Under the pieces are notes generated by a model. That model did not search any database. It saw nothing but the letters and a program-made list of their open reading frames with translations, and had not been told where the DNA came from. Both the position numbers and the translations under genes were made by a program. This document shows, piece after piece, positions 5,412 to 27,366 of a stretch of DNA of 64,000 nt. This stretch comes from Prochlorococcus sp. AG-409-L21 (GTDB lineage Bacteria; Cyanobacteriota; Cyanobacteriia; PCC-6307; Cyanobiaceae): positions 76,085 to 140,084 of the forward strand of contig QCKH01000001.1 of assembly GCA_003215475.1 (NCBI GenBank). The letters are read 5' to 3'. Each line of letters starts with the position of its first letter. Within the stretch, counting starts at the first letter, position 1.

Positions 5412-7298
5412 TTAATAATTTGCTCCTGTGCGACGATGGTGTATAGCTGTAATGCCATTTTGATCAAGGACTTTGCCATGTAGCACTTCCGCATAAATAA
5501 GCCAATGGTCCCCACATTCCATCCTTTGCTTAACACAACCTTCTATCCATGCTAATGCTTCTGGAAGAATAGGTTGTTCTCCTGGACTGGTTATCAGATT
5601 AAGTCCCTTTAATCGATCTGCTCCTGGTGAAAAAGGTTGAAGAAATTGTTTTAATAGTTTTTGGTAGTTTTTCTCGTTGAGAAGATTTAAGGCAAACAGA
5701 TCCCCATTATGGAGCAGAGTTTCGACGGCTCTATCTTTGGCTACAGCAATTGTGATCCCAGGAGGAGTAAAACTAGCTTGGCTAATCCAACTAGCTATCA
5801 TTGCACCATTTATATTACTGTCGTCTTCTTGTTTCTGGGCGGTCAAAACAGATAAGGAGCCAACTATTTTTCCTAGCGCTAATAATGCAGGATCGCTTTT
5901 TGTAATACTTATACCTCCAGTAAGTTGACGTTTTTGACGATTCTCTGCCTGAATTAGTTTACGACCAAACTTTGTACCAGTTTCCTCTAAGATTTTTAAC
6001 ATTTCAACATTGGGACTAAATTTTATTTTTATAGGTTCGAAACCAAATTCAAAGCCCCCATCACGTAACTTATTTTCTAAAAGATCTATTGCTTCCCCAC
6101 TCCACCCATAACTACCGAAGATACCGACAGGCTTTTGTTTATTTCCTTCTGCTAGTAGAATACCTAATGCTGAAATAATTGGCGTTGGCGCATGTCCACC
6201 GAGAGTTGGTGATCCAATTAAATAAGCATCTGCTGTTTTTATTGCAACTAATAATTCCTCGGAAGAAGTAAATTCACAATTGAGACTTTTTACATTAATT
6301 CCTGTGGAACTAATTCCTTTTGCGAGAGTATCAGCAATAGCTGCAGTATTTCCATACGCACTGGCAAAGAGAAGAACAATATTTATAGAAGCTTTGCTTT
6401 GTTGATCGCCCCATCTTTGATAATCATTCATTAAACTACGCCAACTACTATCAATTGCTGGTCCATGGCTCGGTGCAATTGAAGTAATATCAAGTGATTC
6501 AAGTTTTTCTATAATTCTGATTACTTGGCTAACTATCGGAGTCATAAGACAGTCGAAATAATGTCGACGCTCATCGTCTGTGCTACTTCGATTTTTTTCA
6601 GACCACTCTGCTGTACAAATATGAGCACCAAAAAGTTTGTCACTCATAAGTAAACCTGTTTTTTCTTCAAAGGCGATTAGCCCACCAGGCCAACGGGCTG
6701 TTGGCGCAGGTATCAATGTTAATTTATAGTTATTTAGGATTGAAATAGACTGCTCTTGCTTGATGAGTTGGAGTTCTGGTATTAATGGAATTGGTATATT
6801 CACTTTATTTTTTGGACGTATGAGGCTTTTCCAAAGCGCTTGAAAAACTAACTTTTTTGATTTTTTCTTGTTGTTAATAGTTGGTTTTGAAGGTTTGACT
6901 TGATTCCACAGTTCTTTAAGTAATTTTGCACCTGGATTTGAGCAAATAATTTTTAGATTCTTAAACTCTATTGCTAGTTCTCTAAGAAGGCTAACTCGGT
7001 TTGGGTTGATATGACCCGTAACAACTAATAGCTCTGTAATCTCTGTAGATACAATTTCTTTTAAGGCAGGTAAGAAAATTTCTTTGAAATTTTCTCCAGG
7101 AGGATTTACTAGAACAGCAGTCGATTCATTGCTTTCAAAAAATAAAAACGTATTAGACGTTGTTCCTTTTCCTAAGGAATATTCAATTTCGAATCTTAAT
7201 TTTTTTGGGCTTAAACATCTAATAGATGAGAATCCGTCTGCAATAGGTAAACATATAAGTTGTTTTTCTGTTGTTTTCTTAGATGTACGCTGGTTCAT
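5412..7298 (-). CDS. flv1: Flavodiiron protein, Flv1-type (non-canonical iron ligands)
   Basis: Metallo-beta-lactamase + flavodoxin (SAYGNT) + flavin reductase domains; GHINPNR replaces HxExDH. Confidence 0.88.
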   Translation of the reverse strand: MNQRTSKKTTEKQLICLPIADGFSSIRCLSPKKLRFEIEYSLGKGTTSNTFLFFESNESTAVLVNPPGENFKEIFLPALKEIVSTEITELLVVTGHINPNRVSLLRELAIEFKNLKIICSNPGAKLLKELWNQVKPSKPTINNKKKSKKLVFQALWKSLIRPKNKVNIPIPLIPELQLIKQEQSISILNNYKLTLIPAPTARWPGGLIAFEEKTGLLMSDKLFGAHICTAEWSEKNRSSTDDERRHYFDCLMTPIVSQVIRIIEKLESLDITSIAPSHGPAIDSSWRSLMNDYQRWGDQQSKASINIVLLFASAYGNTAAIADTLAKGISSTGINVKSLNCEFTSSEELLVAIKTADAYLIGSPTLGGHAPTPIISALGILLAEGNKQKPVGIFGSYGWSGEAIDLLENKLRDGGFEFGFEPIKIKFSPNVEMLKILEETGTKFGRKLIQAENRQKRQLTGGISITKSDPALLALGKIVGSLSVLTAQKQEDDSNINGAMIASWISQASFTPPGITIAVAKDRAVETLLHNGDLFALNLLNEKNYQKLLKQFLQPFSPGADRLKGLNLITSPGEQPILPEALAWIEGCVKQRMECGDHWLIYAEVLHGKVLDQNGITAIHHRRTGANY

Positions 7299-7299
7299 G

Positions 7300-9072
7300 T
7301 TAATAATATGTTCCTACTTTGCGATGATGTACAGCTGTCTTTGCGTCTGGATTAGAAATATTACCTTTTTCAACTTGTGCATAGATGATCCAGTGGTCCG
7401 TAGTTTCTAGACGTTGTTTTACAAAACAATCTAAATAAGCAAGTGCATCTTGTAAGACAGGACCACCTTTAGCGGCATTTTCTATGATAGAAATATTTTT
7501 AAAACGATCAGCACCTGGAGGAAATCTTTTGAGAAATTGCTTAAATAATTGCTGATAATTATTTTCTTCTAACACATTTAAAACAAAATAATCACCTACT
7601 TGCATGAGTGTTTCGATTGCACGATCCTTTGCAACTGCAACTGTTAAACCAGGAGGTTTAAAACTTGCTTGACTAACCCAGCTTGCAACCATAGCACCTT
7701 GACGTTGATTTGGGCCATCACCTTGACTGGCAGTAACGACATATAATCCTCCGCTGATTCGCCCCATTGCTTTCATTAGATCTCCATCTATGCTTTTAAT
7801 AGATGCAATATTTTTTTTAAGATTTAGTAATTGTCCAAGATCTGTACCAGCTTCCTCAAATTGTTGCAAAGTTTTAGCATCAGGTGCTTGCTTAACTCTT
7901 AAAGGTGAGAAAGCTTCTTTTTGTCCAAGATCTCTTAATTTCTTGGCAATAACATCAATTGGCTCATCATTTTTCCCATAACTTTCATATACGGCTACCC
8001 ATTGAGTTGTTTTTATAGCGGCTAGTAAAGTTCCTATTGCATTTTGAAGCTCTGTATCTATTTGGTTGCCCCATGTAGGAACAATGACTGCTTTTGCCTC
8101 TCCAATGAGAGCACTTAGTTCCTGAGCATCAGTTGCTCTTATGTCAATTAGCTGGATTTCTGCGTTTGCTTTACTTGCTCCTAGGGCAATAGCCTGACTA
8201 AGTTGATCACAGGATCCGTATTGACTGATATAGCAAATCGCAGCATATCCTTCTCCTTTATTTCTTTGACTACTCCATTCCTGATAGTTGTTGAGCCACA
8301 GTTCGATATTGTGACGTAATAATGGGCCATGTCCTACAGCAATTGTATTGATAGTTGGTAACTTTTTAATTCGTTTTAGAGCTTGGATAACACTTCGTGC
8401 ATTTGGTCCCATTAAGCAATCGTAGTAGTAACGAAAATCCGGTAGGATAAGATCCGCATTGAGATCGAACAGTTCATCTGTGCAGAAATGAAGTCCAAAA
8501 GCATCACATGTGTATAAAACGCTTGTCGCATGATCAAATGAGAAAATTGTATCTGGCCAATGCAGATTGGGAGCACTGAAAAATTCAATTTGGTGATGGA
8601 TAGAATTCGATGGATTAATTCCTAAATCAAGATTGTCGCCTGTTTTTATCGTTGTTGATTTAAATGGCTTATGAACTTGGTTTTCTAAAAACTGGATCGC
8701 TACTTTTGATCCAACAATTTCAATGTTGTTATTTAAATCAAGAATATCGCTAATTAAGCCTGAATGATCTGGCTCTGTATGGCTGACTATTAGATAATCA
8801 ATTGTTTGAGGATCAACTTGCTCTTTTAGGGTCTTCAACCAAGTTTCTTTAAATTTTGCATGACTGGTATCAATTAAGGCTTTCTTTTTTCCTTCAATAA
8901 TAAAACTGTTATATGTTGTTCCATTTCTTAAACCAAATTCAATATCAAAACGACTGCGCTCCCAATCGAGAGAACGAATTGTTGTGGTATTAGGTGCGAT
9001 AGATTCGCATTGGAGAGATAGCCTAGTGCTTACTGTTGCTTCATCGATAACGTTTTTTGATTTGGGCTCCAT
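7300..9072 (-). CDS. flv3: Flavodiiron protein, Flv3-type
   Basis: GTTYNSF, SHTEPDH, HWPD, DAFG, GHGP di-iron motifs; C-terminal flavin reductase domain. Confidence 0.88.
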   Translation of the reverse strand: MEPKSKNVIDEATVSTRLSLQCESIAPNTTTIRSLDWERSRFDIEFGLRNGTTYNSFIIEGKKKALIDTSHAKFKETWLKTLKEQVDPQTIDYLIVSHTEPDHSGLISDILDLNNNIEIVGSKVAIQFLENQVHKPFKSTTIKTGDNLDLGINPSNSIHHQIEFFSAPNLHWPDTIFSFDHATSVLYTCDAFGLHFCTDELFDLNADLILPDFRYYYDCLMGPNARSVIQALKRIKKLPTINTIAVGHGPLLRHNIELWLNNYQEWSSQRNKGEGYAAICYISQYGSCDQLSQAIALGASKANAEIQLIDIRATDAQELSALIGEAKAVIVPTWGNQIDTELQNAIGTLLAAIKTTQWVAVYESYGKNDEPIDVIAKKLRDLGQKEAFSPLRVKQAPDAKTLQQFEEAGTDLGQLLNLKKNIASIKSIDGDLMKAMGRISGGLYVVTASQGDGPNQRQGAMVASWVSQASFKPPGLTVAVAKDRAIETLMQVGDYFVLNVLEENNYQQLFKQFLKRFPPGADRFKNISIIENAAKGGPVLQDALAYLDCFVKQRLETTDHWIIYAQVEKGNISNPDAKTAVHHRKVGTYY

Positions 9073-21382: not shown

Positions 21383-22020
21383 CTGATATTCAAAAGCAAT
21401 TTATCTATTTGTTTAAAACATAATTCAATATTGCCACAATTATCAATAATATTGTCAGCTAATTTCTTTTTCTTATCTAAAGATAATTGTGACTCAATTC
21501 TTACTTGTGCTTGTTTATGATTCAACCCATTTCGAAGCATTAGACGTTCATATTGTTGATTAGAGTTACAATATATTAACCAAGTTTCATTGCATAAATC
21601 AGTAAATTTTGCCTCAAATAATAATGGTATGATCATTGCTATAACAGGATAACTTTTATATTTTTTTATATCTTCTTTCAATCTTGTTTTAATAATTGGA
21701 TGCAAAATTTTTTCTAGCCATTCTTTTTCATTCTTTTTAGAAAATATTATCTCTGCCAGAGCATATCTATTAATCTTGTGGTTACCATTACTTTGACTGA
21801 TGATTGCCTTTCCATACCTATTAATAACCATTTTGGCTGCATCTTGATCAATATTTAGTGCTTCGTGTGAGTAAATATCTGCATCAAGAATGGGTATATT
21901 TTTTTCATCTGATAAATATTTGCCCACAACAGTCTTTCCACTAGCAATACCTCCAGTAATTGCTATGCGACGTTGAATTCCTTTCCAACGTTTTGGAAAT
22001 GTACTGTTTGAAACTTGGAC
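21379..22020 (-). CDS. coaE: Dephospho-CoA kinase; true start lies upstream of the ORF-track call and is uncertain
   Basis: In-frame extension upstream of 21927 reads ...RWKGIQRRIAITGGIASGKTVVGKY (P-loop); also DAD, LHP and IPLLFE motifs. Confidence 0.9.
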   Translation of the reverse strand, partial: VQVSNSTFPKRWKGIQRRIAITGGIASGKTVVGKYLSDEKNIPILDADIYSHEALNIDQDAAKMVINRYGKAIISQSNGNHKINRYALAEIIFSKKNEKEWLEKILHPIIKTRLKEDIKKYKSYPVIAMIIPLLFEAKFTDLCNETWLIYCNSNQQYERLMLRNGLNHKQAQVRIESQLSLDKKKKLADNIIDNCGNIELCFKQIDKLLLNIS

Positions 22021-22064
22021 GAAATAGCGGAGGATATATAAAGCTTACTTTCTCAGGCATTGTC

Positions 22065-23309
22065 TTGAGTAATTTTGAATCACCTAATACTTGGTCTTTT
22101 ATTTCAGGTGGGATAACCGCTCCCACTGGTTTTTATGCGTCCGGAGTTTCTGCTGGGCTTAAACCTTCAGAGAAATTAGATCTTGCAGTTATCCTTGCAC
22201 CTCCTGATGCAGTATGTGCAGGGACTTTTACTCAATCTTTAGTTCGAGCAAAGTGTATAGATCTTTGTATGGAACGTTTGTCTCATATGTCTGGGCATGT
22301 CAGAGCAGTCCTAATTAACTCAGGACAAGCTAATGCTTGTACTGGTTTGCGAAGTTTAAGTGACAGTATGACTGCAACAAAAGCTCTTGCTGAAGCATTA
22401 GGTCTTTCTGAAGAAGAAGTACTCATTTGTTCAACTGGTGTGATAGGTCAGTCAATTCCTATGAAAAATCTTCTTCAGGGGATTACTCCTCTTGTTAATG
22501 GTATTAGCCGGGACGGTGGTTCTGATGCTGCTCATGCAATTTTGACTACTGATTTGACAGATAAACAGATTGCTATTGAAGCTAATTTAGGAGGTAGACG
22601 TGTATGTATTGGAGGTATAGCGAAAGGCTCAGGGATGATTTATCCAAACATGGCTACTATGCTTGGATTTTTATCTTGTGATGTTGGCTTGCCTCATGAT
22701 GTATGGCAAGCAATGATCAAGCGAACTGTTGATTGTTCTTTTAATTCAATAAGTGTTGATGGAGATACAAGCACTAATGATTCTTTTCTGGCTTTTGCTG
22801 CGGGAAAATTATTAGATAAAAAGTATTTTGATGAGATTGAAAATGGTTTAAAGATAGTTGCTACTTTTCTTGCTAAATCAATAGCTAGAGATGGTGAAGG
22901 AGCTAATTGTTTGATTGAAGTAGAAGTTCAGGGAGCACACAAAAATACTGACGCAAATATTATTGCTCGCAATATATGTAATTCTTCATTAGTAAAAACT
23001 GCAATTCATGGCTGTGATCCTAATTGGGGTAGAATCCTAGCAGCTGCAGGTTGTGCTGGGATTAACTTTTCTTTAGAAGAAGTTTCTCTGTGGATTGGTC
23101 CTTTTAGATTGATGAAGAATGGAACCCCAGTTGAATATGATAATAATGTTGTAGTGACTTATATGAAGGAAACAATAAAAGCTAGTAATTTAAATGATAA
23201 TACAATCTCCATTAGATTATTAATTGGAAAGGGGAATCAATCTTCTATAGCTTGGGGTTGTGACCTATCATCTGAATATGTAAATATCAATAGTGAATAT
23301 ACTACATAA
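22065..23309 (+). CDS. argJ: Bifunctional ornithine acetyltransferase/N-acetylglutamate synthase (likely TTG start at 22065)
   Basis: NSGQANACTG, STGVIG, KGSGMIYPNMATML, DGDTSTND, DGEGA, C-terminal YVNINSEYTT. Confidence 0.97.
   Translation: MSNFESPNTWSFISGGITAPTGFYASGVSAGLKPSEKLDLAVILAPPDAVCAGTFTQSLVRAKCIDLCMERLSHMSGHVRAVLINSGQANACTGLRSLSDSMTATKALAEALGLSEEEVLICSTGVIGQSIPMKNLLQGITPLVNGISRDGGSDAAHAILTTDLTDKQIAIEANLGGRRVCIGGIAKGSGMIYPNMATMLGFLSCDVGLPHDVWQAMIKRTVDCSFNSISVDGDTSTNDSFLAFAAGKLLDKKYFDEIENGLKIVATFLAKSIARDGEGANCLIEVEVQGAHKNTDANIIARNICNSSLVKTAIHGCDPNWGRILAAAGCAGINFSLEEVSLWIGPFRLMKNGTPVEYDNNVVVTYMKETIKASNLNDNTISIRLLIGKGNQSSIAWGCDLSSEYVNINSEYTT
23289..23309 (+). repeat. attL-like copy (current argJ end, NSEYTT*)
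   Basis: 18/21 identical to 24514-24534. Confidence 0.85.
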
Positions 23310-23356
23310 ACTCAGACCTGTTGCGCTGCAACGAATTTGGGGATTTATTTTAATTC

Positions 23357-23375
23357 ATAAACCGCAAATAAACCG
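23357..23375 (+). repeat. Left arm-type repeat pair ATAAACCG x2, 11-bp period
   Basis: ataaaccg at 23357-23364 and 23368-23375. Confidence 0.75.
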
Positions 23376-23457
23376 GTTTAAAAATTATTCATTAATTCCT
23401 CGCAGAAAGTTTTAAGAACTTACATTAAAATTTATTCGTATATTCCAAAAAACTTAT

Positions 23458-24345
23458 ATGGAAATTTCATATGGACATATCGATGGAATTAAAATCGGAC
23501 AAATTTTTGAGACTCGTCAAGCGCTAATTGATGCGGGAATGCATCCACATAGAGAAGCAGGAATTTGGGGAAGTAGTAAACATGCAGCATGCTCAATTGT
23601 TTTATCAGGAGGATATGAAGATGATTTAGATGAATTAGATTTTGTTTTATATACGGGACATGGTGGACAGAAAAATAAAGTTCAAGTTGTTGATCAAGAT
23701 TTTTCTGCCAAAAGAGGTTGGGGAAATAAAGGTCTTGTAATTAGTTATGAGTCTAATTTGCCCGTTCGAGTTATCAGGGGTTATCAGATTGATAATGGAC
23801 CAACTTCAGGTTATAGATATGACGGATTATATTATGTTGAGAAATATGAGAGGGTAAGAGGAAAAAGTGGATATTTTGTTTGTCGCTTTTATTTAAGAAG
23901 TGAATTACAAATTCAACCTTTAGAAAATCAACTAAAATCCAATTTAAAAAAAACTTATAAGAGTGCACCTAGAGCAAAATCTATTGTTGATCGAACTGTA
24001 AGATCTCAAAGAAATGTAGATGCAATAAAAAAGATGTATTCATATAGATGCCAAGTTTGTGGTATCCAATTGGATGCTCCTGATAGATTACCTATTTGTA
24101 TTGGTGCACATATAAAAGGGATTGGTTTTCCAACTAGAGGTCCTGATGAAGTTGAAAATATGCTTTGCTTATGTCCTAATCATCATGACCAATTTGATGC
24201 TTTTGCTTTTACTATCAATCCTGAAAATTTTAAAATAATAGGTTTGAATGAATTTAATGATAAAAAGATTCAGTTAAATAAAAAACATAATATTGATCAG
24301 CAATTTCTTCAATATCATTTTGACGAATATGAAAAGCATTATTAA
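23458..24345 (+). CDS. SRA(YDG)-HNH modification-dependent (type IV-like) restriction endonuclease
   Basis: SRA motifs GHIDG..GQIF, AGIWG, SIVLSGGYEDD, YTGHGG, PVRVIRG, YRYDGLY; C-terminal zinc-HNH CQVC..GAHI..NMLCLCPNHH. Confidence 0.92.
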   Translation: MEISYGHIDGIKIGQIFETRQALIDAGMHPHREAGIWGSSKHAACSIVLSGGYEDDLDELDFVLYTGHGGQKNKVQVVDQDFSAKRGWGNKGLVISYESNLPVRVIRGYQIDNGPTSGYRYDGLYYVEKYERVRGKSGYFVCRFYLRSELQIQPLENQLKSNLKKTYKSAPRAKSIVDRTVRSQRNVDAIKKMYSYRCQVCGIQLDAPDRLPICIGAHIKGIGFPTRGPDEVENMLCLCPNHHDQFDAFAFTINPENFKIIGLNEFNDKKIQLNKKHNIDQQFLQYHFDEYEKHY

Positions 24346-24374
24346 TCAAAACTTTTAATCCAAATTTCGATTTG

Positions 24375-24457
24375 AATAAACCACTAATAAACCACCGCCC
24401 TAGTTATATCAATCGTTTTCAGATATTAAAATTCAAATAAACCACCAATAAACCACT
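24375..24457 (+). repeat. Right arm-type repeats AATAAACCAC(T/C) x4, in two tandem pairs
   Basis: Copies at 24375, 24386, 24436 and 24447; 11-bp period within each pair. Confidence 0.85.
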
Positions 24458-24501
24458 AACTCAATCCTTGAGATCTATTGGTATGACTCAATTTTATCCT
24501 G

Positions 24502-24534
24502 TATGTTTTTATGAATAGCGAGTATACTACTTAA
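24502..24534 (+). repeat. attR-like displaced copy of the argJ 3' end (YVFMNSEYTT*)
   Basis: tat gtt ttt atg aat agc gag tat act act taa versus argJ tat gta aat atc aat agt gaa tat act aca taa. Confidence 0.85.
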
Positions 24535-24836
24535 AGCCTAAATCGATGTAATGCGAATGCTTCCAGAGGATCCGTATTTCTTGCTCACAGCTCATTAAAA
24601 GAAATTAGGTTTTTACTGCATTTTTAAAAAGTAAAAATATATTGCTCACAGTACTGAACAACTGAGAAACTTTGAGATAATTGGATTTTTTTCAATTAAA
24701 TTAATTTGCTTAGTACGAAGACTTTAAAGATGTATAACTCATAGAGTTTTTTAAGTTAACTTGTTACCAATCTTTGATTATGCTGAAAAGAACTTAAAAT
24801 ATCTTTTGTAGGAGATTTTAGAATTAAATAGATGTT

Positions 24837-25964
24837 ATGAATAAACCAAAGAAAGCATTAATAACTGGAATCACAGGTCAAGATGGGAGTTATCTTGCTG
24901 AGCTACTTTTAGAAAAAGGTTATGAAGTTCATGGTATTAAAAGACGATCAAGTAGTTTCAATACAAGCCGTATTGATCATCTTTATCAAGATCCTCATGA
25001 GTTAAATGCACGTTTTATTCTTCATTATGGTGACTTAACTGATACACCGAATTTAATTAGTATTATTCAGCAAGTTGAACCTGATGAGATATATAACTTG
25101 GGAGCTCAAAGTCATGTTGCTGTTAGCTTTGAGACTCCCGAATATACTGCTAACTGTGATGGTATAGGCACCTTAAGAATTCTTGATGCAGTGCGCGTAT
25201 TAGGGTTTACAAAGAAAACCCGTCTTTATCAAGCAAGTACTAGTGAATTATATGGTCTTGTGCAAGAAATACCTCAATCAGAGAACACTAGATTTTATCC
25301 CCGGAGTCCTTATGCAGTAGCTAAATTATATGCTTATTGGATTACTGTAAATTATCGAGAAGCTTATGGCATGTATGCTTGTAACGGAATACTTTTTAAT
25401 CATGAATCGCCTAGAAGAGGGGAAACATTTGTTACACGTAAAATCACAAGAGGATTGTCGAGGATAGATACAGGTTTAGATCAAAGTCTTTATATAGGAA
25501 ATTTAGATTCTTTACGTGATTGGGGGCATGCTAAAGATTATGTAGAGATGCAATGGTTAATGCTTCAGCAAGATCATCCTGAAGATTTTGTTATAGCTAC
25601 TGGTCGACAAGAAAGTGTAAGAAGATTTATTGAACTTACTGCTATAGAGCTGGGATGGGGAGGGATCGACTGGCATGGGGAAGGTGTGAATGAAATTGGT
25701 CGTCGAAGTGATACTGGCCAAGATATTATTCGTATTGATTCTCGTTATTTCCGTCCAACTGAGGTTACAACTTTATTGGGTGATCCTACGAAAGCACATA
25801 TTAAGTTGGGTTGGAAGCCTACTACTACTTTAGAAGAATTAGTTGCAGAAATGGTATCTGTAGATAAAGAAGAAGCAGCTAAGGAGGCGTTATTAAATAG
25901 TGAGGGATTTTCAGTAATTAGTCCGATCGAATCTCCACCTTCTAATTCAAACTTAAAAAAGTAA
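24837..25964 (+). CDS. gmd: GDP-mannose 4,6-dehydratase
   Basis: [51 protein letters not shown]. Confidence 0.97.
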
Positions 25965-25968
25965 AACT

Positions 25969-26973
25969 TTGAATTCAAAAATATTATTAAATTTCAAAGA
26001 AAAAATTTTTATTGCCGGTCATTCTGGGATGGTTGGTTCATCAATTGTTAGGGCTTTAAGAAAACAAGGATATAATAATCTCCTAACTATTAACCGTAAA
26101 AGATTAGATTTATTAGATTCAGGATCAGTAGAATCTTTTTTTAAAATTAATCAGCCTAAAATAGTTATTATTGCAGCTGCTAAAGTAGGTGGGATCATCG
26201 CTAATAATACTTATCCAGTAGAGTTCCTTCTTGAAAACATAAAAATACAAAATAATCTAATAGAAAATGCATGGAAATATGGATGTAAGCGTTTATTATT
26301 TTTAGGAAGTAGTTGCATTTATCCAAAACTTGCCTCTCAGCCTATAAGCGAAGAATCTCTTCTCACAGGTTCTCTTGAACCTACAAATGAATATTATGCA
26401 ATAGCTAAAATAGCAGGATTGAAGCTTTGTCAGGCTTTGCGAATCCAGTATGGATTTGATGCAATTACATTAATGCCGACAAATCTTTATGGGCCAGGTG
26501 ATAATTACCATGAACAAAATAGTCATGTTTTACCAGCAATGATAAGAAGATTTTCTGATGCGTTGAACCAAGGAGATAAGAGTGTGACTTGCTGGGGTTC
26601 TGGTTTACCTTATCGAGAGTTTTTACATGTTGATGATTTAGCGGATGCTTGCTTATTCGCACTTAAGTATTGGGATCCAACTTCCAAAAGTGCTCCTAAA
26701 AATTTGGATGGTTCATCATTGAATTTGCTTAATGTTGGGACTGGCTCTGAAATACAAATTAAAAATCTTGCACATCTCATTGCAAAAATGATTGGTTTTG
26801 AAGGTCGCATTGAATGGGATTTAACTAAGCCTGATGGAACTCCAAGAAAGCAATTAGATATTTCAAATATAAGTGATTTAGGGTGGTCTCCTAGTATTTC
26901 CTTAGAACAGGGGTTAATGAATACTATTAATGATTACTATCATCAATTAAAAACCAATAATATTCGCGCTTAA
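25969..26973 (+). CDS. fcl: GDP-L-fucose synthase
   Basis: AGHSGMVGS, AAAKVGGI, LGSSCIYPK, YAIAK, PTNLYGPGDN, KPDGTPRK. Confidence 0.95.
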   Translation: MNSKILLNFKEKIFIAGHSGMVGSSIVRALRKQGYNNLLTINRKRLDLLDSGSVESFFKINQPKIVIIAAAKVGGIIANNTYPVEFLLENIKIQNNLIENAWKYGCKRLLFLGSSCIYPKLASQPISEESLLTGSLEPTNEYYAIAKIAGLKLCQALRIQYGFDAITLMPTNLYGPGDNYHEQNSHVLPAMIRRFSDALNQGDKSVTCWGSGLPYREFLHVDDLADACLFALKYWDPTSKSAPKNLDGSSLNLLNVGTGSEIQIKNLAHLIAKMIGFEGRIEWDLTKPDGTPRKQLDISNISDLGWSPSISLEQGLMNTINDYYHQLKTNNIRA

Positions 26974-27007
26974 TTAATTACTCTAACTAACAAATTTTTT
27001 AAATTAA

Positions 27008-27280
27008 TTGTGAGAGGGCCTTCCAGCCCTCAGGGATCATTTGGTTGATAAGGCTGTCCTCACCCCATCTCCCTTATAGGGTCAAGCAGCAACAGGGGCT
27101 GTTTGACGGGAGAAACTAACGATTTTGTTAGCAGTTATGGTTTTGCTCTAACCGAGCCGGCTTCAGTCAGACTCCTTGAACCCCGTCGAAGCCATTGCAG
27201 CCCCCAAAAATGGAGCTGAGCGGAATCGAACCGCTGTCCGAGATACTGGTGTGAATCACCTAGTCCATTAAAAATGGACA
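27008..27280 (-). ncRNA. ssrA: Two-piece (circularly permuted) tmRNA; outer ends approximate
   Basis: Minus strand: T-arm and acceptor 3' half ggttcgattccgctcagctcca ends at 27211, then GGGGCTG 5' half starts at 27204 (G3.U70 Ala determinant); tag frame 27132-27082 encodes ANKIVSFSRQTAPVAA*. Confidence 0.95.
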
Positions 27281-27366
27281 AATATATTCTGACAGATTCT
27301 TAGAACACTATTAATTTAATGCAAACAAATTCTCAAAATCTTCGTCTTTCTTTTTAAATTAAAGAC

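Follow-up and report, generated by a model that had tools for sequence, protein, structure and literature searches.

A one-gene cassette without integrase at the 3' end of argJ in Prochlorococcus and its relation to a family of argJ arrays

In a stretch of 64,000 nucleotides from Prochlorococcus sp. AG-409-L21 (the window), the 3' end of argJ is followed by a single gene and then by a second copy of the same gene end. The locus raises the question of how a cassette that encodes no recombinase could be inserted into a housekeeping protein gene, and whether it is a lone element or one member of a larger family. We have approached this question by comparing the cassette with the argJ-downstream regions of its relatives, with metagenome contigs and with the integrases found at the same site.

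The argJ end and the cassette of the window

The original prediction for this locus held that the last seven codons of argJ recur 1225 bp downstream. Both copies were located as 21-nt repeats at this spacing (Table 1), with three mismatches, every one of them synonymous; both read NSEYTT*, and the likeness reaches into the preceding residues (YVNI against YVFM), as had also been anticipated. No third copy of the core was found at up to four mismatches in the 1.34-Mb assembly. A second copy of the gene's own end (at most three mismatches, within 20 kb) occurs for 6 of the 832 long ORF ends of the genome, argJ included, and the case therefore rests on the arm motifs and the comparative data, which exclude a chance origin of the repeat.

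Table 1. Features of the argJ locus in window coordinates
Feature	Position	Strand	Basis or remark
argJ, target gene	21960..23309	+	PF01960, E 3e-131; ORF limits as listed, true start possibly further in
attL, left core copy, last six codons and stop of argJ	23289..23309	+	21-nt repeat
Left cassette end with arm-type doublet 23357-23374 (+47 from core)	23310..23374	+	Best + strand match of the left-end profile in the window
Cargo, 295-aa SRA-HNH protein, predicted type IV (modification-dependent) restriction endonuclease of the TagI kind	23458..24345	+	PF02182, E 9e-41; PF13391, E 7e-12
Right arm-type doublet 1, about -138 from core	24376..24393	+	ATAAACC-N4-ATAAACC
Right arm-type doublet 2, about -77 from core	24437..24454	+	Common to integrase-bearing contigs
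Right cassette end	24459..24513	+	Best match of the right-end profile; position profile of 82 right ends
attR, right core copy, in-frame synonymous argJ end	24514..24534	+	21-nt repeat
Decayed, empty second unit (likely), right limit uncertain	24535..24728	+	Second-best + strand matches of both end profiles, at 24536 and 24653

The mobile unit spans 23289-24534. As had been predicted, one gene and arm-like repeats lie between the core copies, with no integrase gene: the sole gene encodes an SRA-HNH protein, and the repeats are three doublets ATAAACC-N4-ATAAACC, which across the 1.34-Mb assembly begin at 23357, 24376 and 24437 only. The last 12 nt of the right cassette end are similar to the argJ codons that precede the core and are likely a core-type half-site. 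A promoter and terminator scan of the cassette gave signals below the shuffle expectation, and no strong inverted repeat was present at the cassette ends among the repeats listed.

The cargo protein matches TagI (6ghs) over residues 4-289 with an E value of 1e-51, in the same domain order and with an intact frame; PADLOC, which has no model for it, gave no match. TagI is described as cutting DNA that carries 5mC or 5hmC and as restricting T4gt (PMC6212794). By analogy, the cargo likely cuts incoming DNA modified in this way, and a defence role is predicted. It differs from TagI in being the only cargo of a mobile cassette.

The array is bordered directly by argJ. It fills an island that extends from argJ to tmRNA, an interval of about 0.1 to 15 kb among relatives; here the tmRNA lies 3.7 kb from the argJ site on the opposite strand. 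The island of the window is closed at 24837-27300, by the GDP-sugar genes gmd and fcl together with the convergent tmRNA, which lies at 26991-27300.

Directly 3' of the right core lies what is likely a decayed and empty second unit. Its left-end score of 15.5 is below the best reverse-strand background of 16.8; its arm motif is TGCTCAC, found at 24582 and 24643 (+47 and +108), and its spacing fits that of a 205-bp empty unit in another region (L050). Since this unit has another arm type and stands 3' of the right core, the window probably bears the marks of two arrivals. Empty units of 133-205 bp were also seen in L002, L006, L019 and L054 besides L050, apparently collapsed between arm repeats, and metagenome joints 23351-24437 and 23377-24428 represent the same collapse for the ATAAACC arm type.

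Arrays, empty sites and the point of exchange

A degenerate core pattern matches 343 of 401 sampled family genomes, 75 of which (counted by hand) have at least two copies; the reversed pattern, used as a control, gave no match in any of the 401. In the genus g18, which we infer to be the high-light group, the host of the window being presumably a low-light Prochlorococcus, the pattern is found in 228 of 285 genomes and at least twice in 86 (hand-counted). Most copies follow argJ as tandem repeats on its downstream side, with as many as five in succession. From 100 regions, which were fetched mainly for multiple copies so that unit counts are not a random sample, 96 yielded 128 distinct units; an integrase is lacking in 101 of these, complete in 21 and fragmentary in 6. 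The integrase-less units have a median length of 1668 bp and are mostly of 0.5-3 kb. All 21 full integrases are lambda-like tyrosine integrases, and they occur in 7 of 106 units of AT-rich hosts against 14 of 22 of GC-rich hosts.

Empty argJ sites were found at 13 of 55 distinct g18 loci, all 13 with one host-type ending followed by one host flank. The host-type core ending is present in 19 of 21 terminal copies before the host flank as opposed to 2 of 42 argJ copies before another flank, counts that come from related genomes in g18 and hence are no independent test. Comparison of 280 sites locates the exchange more closely. Core positions 11, 14, 17 and 20 agree in 94-99% of the pairs that share only the downstream flank (background 27-66%), and still in 74-93% of such pairs when the g18 host flank is left out; where the upstream flank alone is shared, positions 14 and 17 are at background, and positions 2-5 track neither side clearly. 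The right half of the core thus tracks the downstream flank, which makes it likely that the exchange falls in roughly the first 8 core nucleotides; the incoming unit would then supply the stop and the three to four codons before it. In the window the right half of attL is identical to that of two metagenome contigs with the same left end (L114 and L120), and it was likely supplied by the cassette.

Taken together, the sequences indicate that the argJ end is the site of a widespread array system of which the window cassette is one member and no lone element. The comparison of argJ-downstream regions that had been proposed for this locus gave empty sites, other cargo and integrase-bearing relatives alike, and none of the three refuting conditions attached to the prediction held; a close relative of the host with an empty argJ site was not found in the genomes compared. 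Inverted core copies were seen in L063 (G154), L055/L056 (G283) and L118 and suggest inversions or head-to-head insertions. Single core copies with element-like flanks also occur hundreds of kb from argJ in L072, L073 and L093 (G212, G012 and G243), possibly as secondary sites or relocated parts of arrays.

The claim that the cassette recodes the end of argJ must be divided. The change made by this insertion is synonymous, and in this sense there is no recoding; the NSE tail of the host, on the other hand, itself looks imported. In a FastTree tree of ArgJ, from which the last 12 residues were left out, the host protein groups with its own genus (support 0.97), of which all 11 other members end in NADYTT, while the host ends in NSEYTT like g18. 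With the body of its own genus and a g18-like tail, the host ArgJ likely received its tail earlier from such elements; convergence is the alternative. The hybrid tails NSD and NAE also occur.

Arm motifs, spread between hosts and candidate integrases

Doublets at +46/47, -77/78 and -138/139 are found in many units with or without integrase, the window cassette included, and other units have a second layout with TGTGAT-type repeats. The arm heptamer varies among units, and its left and right forms are the same in 32 of the 38 units compared; shuffling gave 4.7 on average and never more than 12. ATAAACC arms were found in eight further complete units, which keep all arms intact around short cargo; one carries the same gene, and the other seven provide different cargo between the same ends, a cation-efflux protein among it. 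Partial units with ATAAACC arms carry a C5 methylase with Vsr. The cargo of other regions (L036, L064, L057, L059, L063-L070, L116 and L118) includes restriction-modification-like genes, a C5 methylase with Vsr and EcoRII-C; a 147-aa protein that recurs as cargo in other argJ units is presumably a cyanase.

The contig L120 carries the same cassette (96% identical in nucleotides, 97% in amino acids) in a g18-type argJ and before a different downstream flank. The ArgJ proteins of the two hosts belong to distant clades, and the identity stops near the cores. In 8 of the 8 metagenomes compared, out of 19 listed, contigs of about 98% identity cover the cassette, starting at or near 23289 and leaving the adjacent host flanks uncovered; the lack of flank cover means only that the host strain is not assembled there. 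The loose ends before the cassette are a g18-type argJ or the right end of another unit, and those after it are other left ends. The arm doublet was not found in 14 other genomes of the host's own genus. A search of 400 family genomes for the whole cassette gave right-end matches only, in six genomes and best in g18, and did not find the cargo. A search for a circle junction of 1225 bp had been proposed as a check; neither such a junction nor a precise empty junction of the window cassette was present among the joints listed in eight metagenome contig runs. In the contig L113, a 62%-identical SRA-HNH homolog stands directly after the end of another gene, which we take to be glmS-like, and before an ATAAACC right end and a g18 host flank; this arrangement suggests capture of cargo from another host or an assembly chimera.

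A metagenome scan for the right end of the window cassette gave 15 contigs, 13 of them real; L115 and L122 have no core and were dropped. In four of these (L119, L123, L126 and L127) an integrase adjoins the ATAAACC arm, so that integrases sharing the ends of the window cassette do exist. All four read in the order right end, core, left end, which is found in none of the 10 integrase-less right ends. With the same arms on both sides, this order suggests an attP-like arrangement, as in an excised circle, and L126 and L127 have their genes in an order compatible with a circle; head-to-tail tandems would be an alternative reading of the four junctions. With regard to the hallmark replication genes shared by tycheposons, Pfam annotation of 12 ORFs on these four partial contigs recognised the integrase, plus a serine resolvase and a single match that was weak and unrelated.

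The ATAAACC integrases nest within the argJ integrases, which, in a FastTree tree that held no published tycheposon reference sequences, form their own clade (support 0.97), with the flv- and trmD-adjacent integrases as its neighbours. Members of the family, which comprises 57 clusters in the protein database, have weak PF00589 matches; residues R327 and Y488 are invariant and the H457 motif is near-invariant. In a structural model (pLDDT 83) the N-terminus forms a beta-sheet and a helix, and the closest structure is full-length lambda Int (E 7e-9). Thus, an integrase with an N-terminal arm-binding domain and the catalytic residues is predicted. In argJ units the integrase gene points inward in either of two placements, on the + strand at the argJ end or on the - strand at the far end of the unit.

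No close copy of the cognate integrase was found in the host genome, which is 70% complete, and the best match among 285 g18 genomes reaches only 29% identity, which indicates that helpers are very rare in chromosomes. A match to argJ-type integrases is present in 9 of 50 chosen genomes and absent from seven complete array-bearing ones (G091, G109, G127, G154, G212, G323 and G363). No relative of the integrase was found in the IMG/VR viral contigs, where one arm-pattern match turned out to be due to chance; with three scans of this collection giving no real match, there is no support in it for a phage or satellite as helper.

Outside the window, the host genome carries a 539-codon tyrosine recombinase that is a distant relative of the argJ integrases (E 6e-12; C10:37052-38668), on a contig in which no tRNA was found. 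Distant sister integrases occur in L205:7038-14400, L197 and L206 directly after the 3' end of a gene ending in HHRKVANHY, which we assume to be of the flavodiiron type (flv). L205 has a distal copy of that gene end, which makes a second protein-gene target likely. The two genes of this kind in the window (5412-9072) have no insert. Related integrases in L204:7568-9966 and L207:8658-12209 lie next to the end of another gene, presumably trmD-like, a possible third target.

Explanation of the cassette and known systems

The ends of the cassette are exact and are shared by other units, and empty sites, arrays, presence across clades and integrases with the same arms all exist. We propose, with good though not full confidence, that the integrase-less cassette was inserted by lambda-type site-specific recombination, and that a rare autonomous element whose arms match provided the integrase in trans. 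In this mechanism, a circular form of the cassette would recombine with argJ no further than about 8 nt into the core and bring the stop together with the three to four codons before it, so that ArgJ stays whole; the newest unit would land at argJ and shift the older ones outward, and the arm motif would decide which transient helper integrase moves which cassette. Excision could be hampered by the mismatch between the two cores at position 5, which falls within the presumed overlap. Against the proposal stand the lack of a circle of the window cassette among the joints listed and the absence of the helper from the host genome at its 70% completeness; homologous recombination in argJ and the downstream flanks could also spread cassettes within a clade. 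From the original prediction of a single-gene defence cassette that targets a protein gene and is mobilised in trans, the protein-gene target and the shared ends stand, while trans mobilisation and defence are what we infer.

The cassette might instead be an immobile relic, that is, an autonomous element that lost its integrase by internal deletion and now spreads by descent and homologous recombination. The integrase fragments in 6 of 128 units, the 133-205 bp empty units, which demonstrate that internal deletion occurs, and the same lack of a circle among the joints would agree with this. However, a 1225-bp unit is 96% identical in distant ArgJ clades with the identity ending near the cores, it has different neighbours on both sides elsewhere, and the eight further units keep every arm around their short cargo; we therefore hold a relic to be unlikely. 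Somewhat less likely still is that a resident recombinase of the host, such as the conserved core-gene tyrosine recombinase or an XerC/D-like activity, moves the cassettes as in an integron, with the visiting integrases being incidental. There are complete array genomes without an argJ-type integrase, and the genomes tested carry other tyrosine recombinases, but these fall outside the argJ integrase clade; moreover, one host enzyme would not need the many arm types that match within a unit, among which ATAAACC is tied to one integrase clade. Local duplication or chance likeness beside a horizontally acquired gene, for which only the comparable copies at 6 of 832 ORF ends within 20 kb would speak, is refuted by the family arrays, empty sites, fixed arm spacing, integrase-shared ends and cross-clade unit.

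Compared with known systems, the cassette has several features of a lambda-type element: direct core repeats at both borders, empty sites in relatives and arms at fixed distances. Tycheposons have seven tRNA or tmRNA targets, tmRNA among them (Hackl et al., bioRxiv 10.1101/2020.12.28.424599). The argJ elements resemble them, as that preprint describes them, in the inward site-specific tyrosine integrase at one end of the autonomous relatives, in tandem arrival at one site, in adaptive cargo and in their hosts. They are unlike tycheposons in that the target is the end of a protein gene, argJ, and no tRNA or tmRNA, and in that most units, the window cassette included, are integrase-less, the integrase being found only in relatives. 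The words 'argJ', 'arm' and 'non-autonomous' do not appear in the main text of the preprint, whose unplaced 'non-tRNA-associated' integrases may include the argJ enzymes.

Other elements with protein genes as targets are SGI1, which uses the 3' end of trmE, and the dusA islands (PMC8409611, PMC4482086). In these reports too, a dedicated tyrosine integrase uses the end of a housekeeping gene as attB and the gene is kept whole. These islands, as described there, encode their integrase, unlike 99 of the 106 argJ units of AT-rich hosts, which lack a full one; the several arm specificities that share one attB at argJ are a further difference. The additive island fGI-2 of Methylopumilus, marked by a repeated tRNA end (PMC10872708), and the tRNA-Phe insertions of marine Synechococcus with their tRNA-end repeats (PMC8995045) likewise have accessory genes stacked between copies of the target 3' end. 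Their targets are tRNA genes, and the parts of these accounts used here describe no arm architecture or matched-arm helper.

Integrons stack short, mostly one-gene units without a recombinase of their own in order of arrival at one site. The argJ arrays resemble integron cassette arrays in outcome; they differ in having no resident integrase beside most arrays, in direct core repeats with arm doublets and in a lambda-Int-like enzyme fold. Among the papers listed in literature searches none describes an argJ integration site; the tables of the tycheposon work could list argJ. The argJ cassettes are a form of integrative element that fits neither among tycheposons nor among integrons. Whether they amount to a distributed, integron-like capture system without resident enzyme is, in our judgement, evenly balanced; such a system would comprise one-gene cassettes of 1-2 kb at argJ, a 7-nt arm code, rare and mostly extrachromosomal helpers, traffic across clades, replacement of the NAD by the NSE tail in this host and sister integrases at the flv and trmD regions.

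According to the tycheposon preprint, active elements make up only 3.6% of the island DNA of Prochlorococcus, the rest being ascribed to imprecise excision (10.1101/2020.12.28.424599). One island can now be read in part as a set of cassettes that lack an integrase but have precise borders, a legible end code and a candidate helper, by which the gain of single genes in streamlined genomes becomes directly testable. In addition, argJ is a protein-gene target that surveys based on tRNA genes have missed, and adaptive and defence cargo can be mined by means of the cassette ends. Genetic work on picocyanobacteria might profit as well, from an integrase that is compact, comes in several arm specificities and would leave no scar at its site in a conserved gene.
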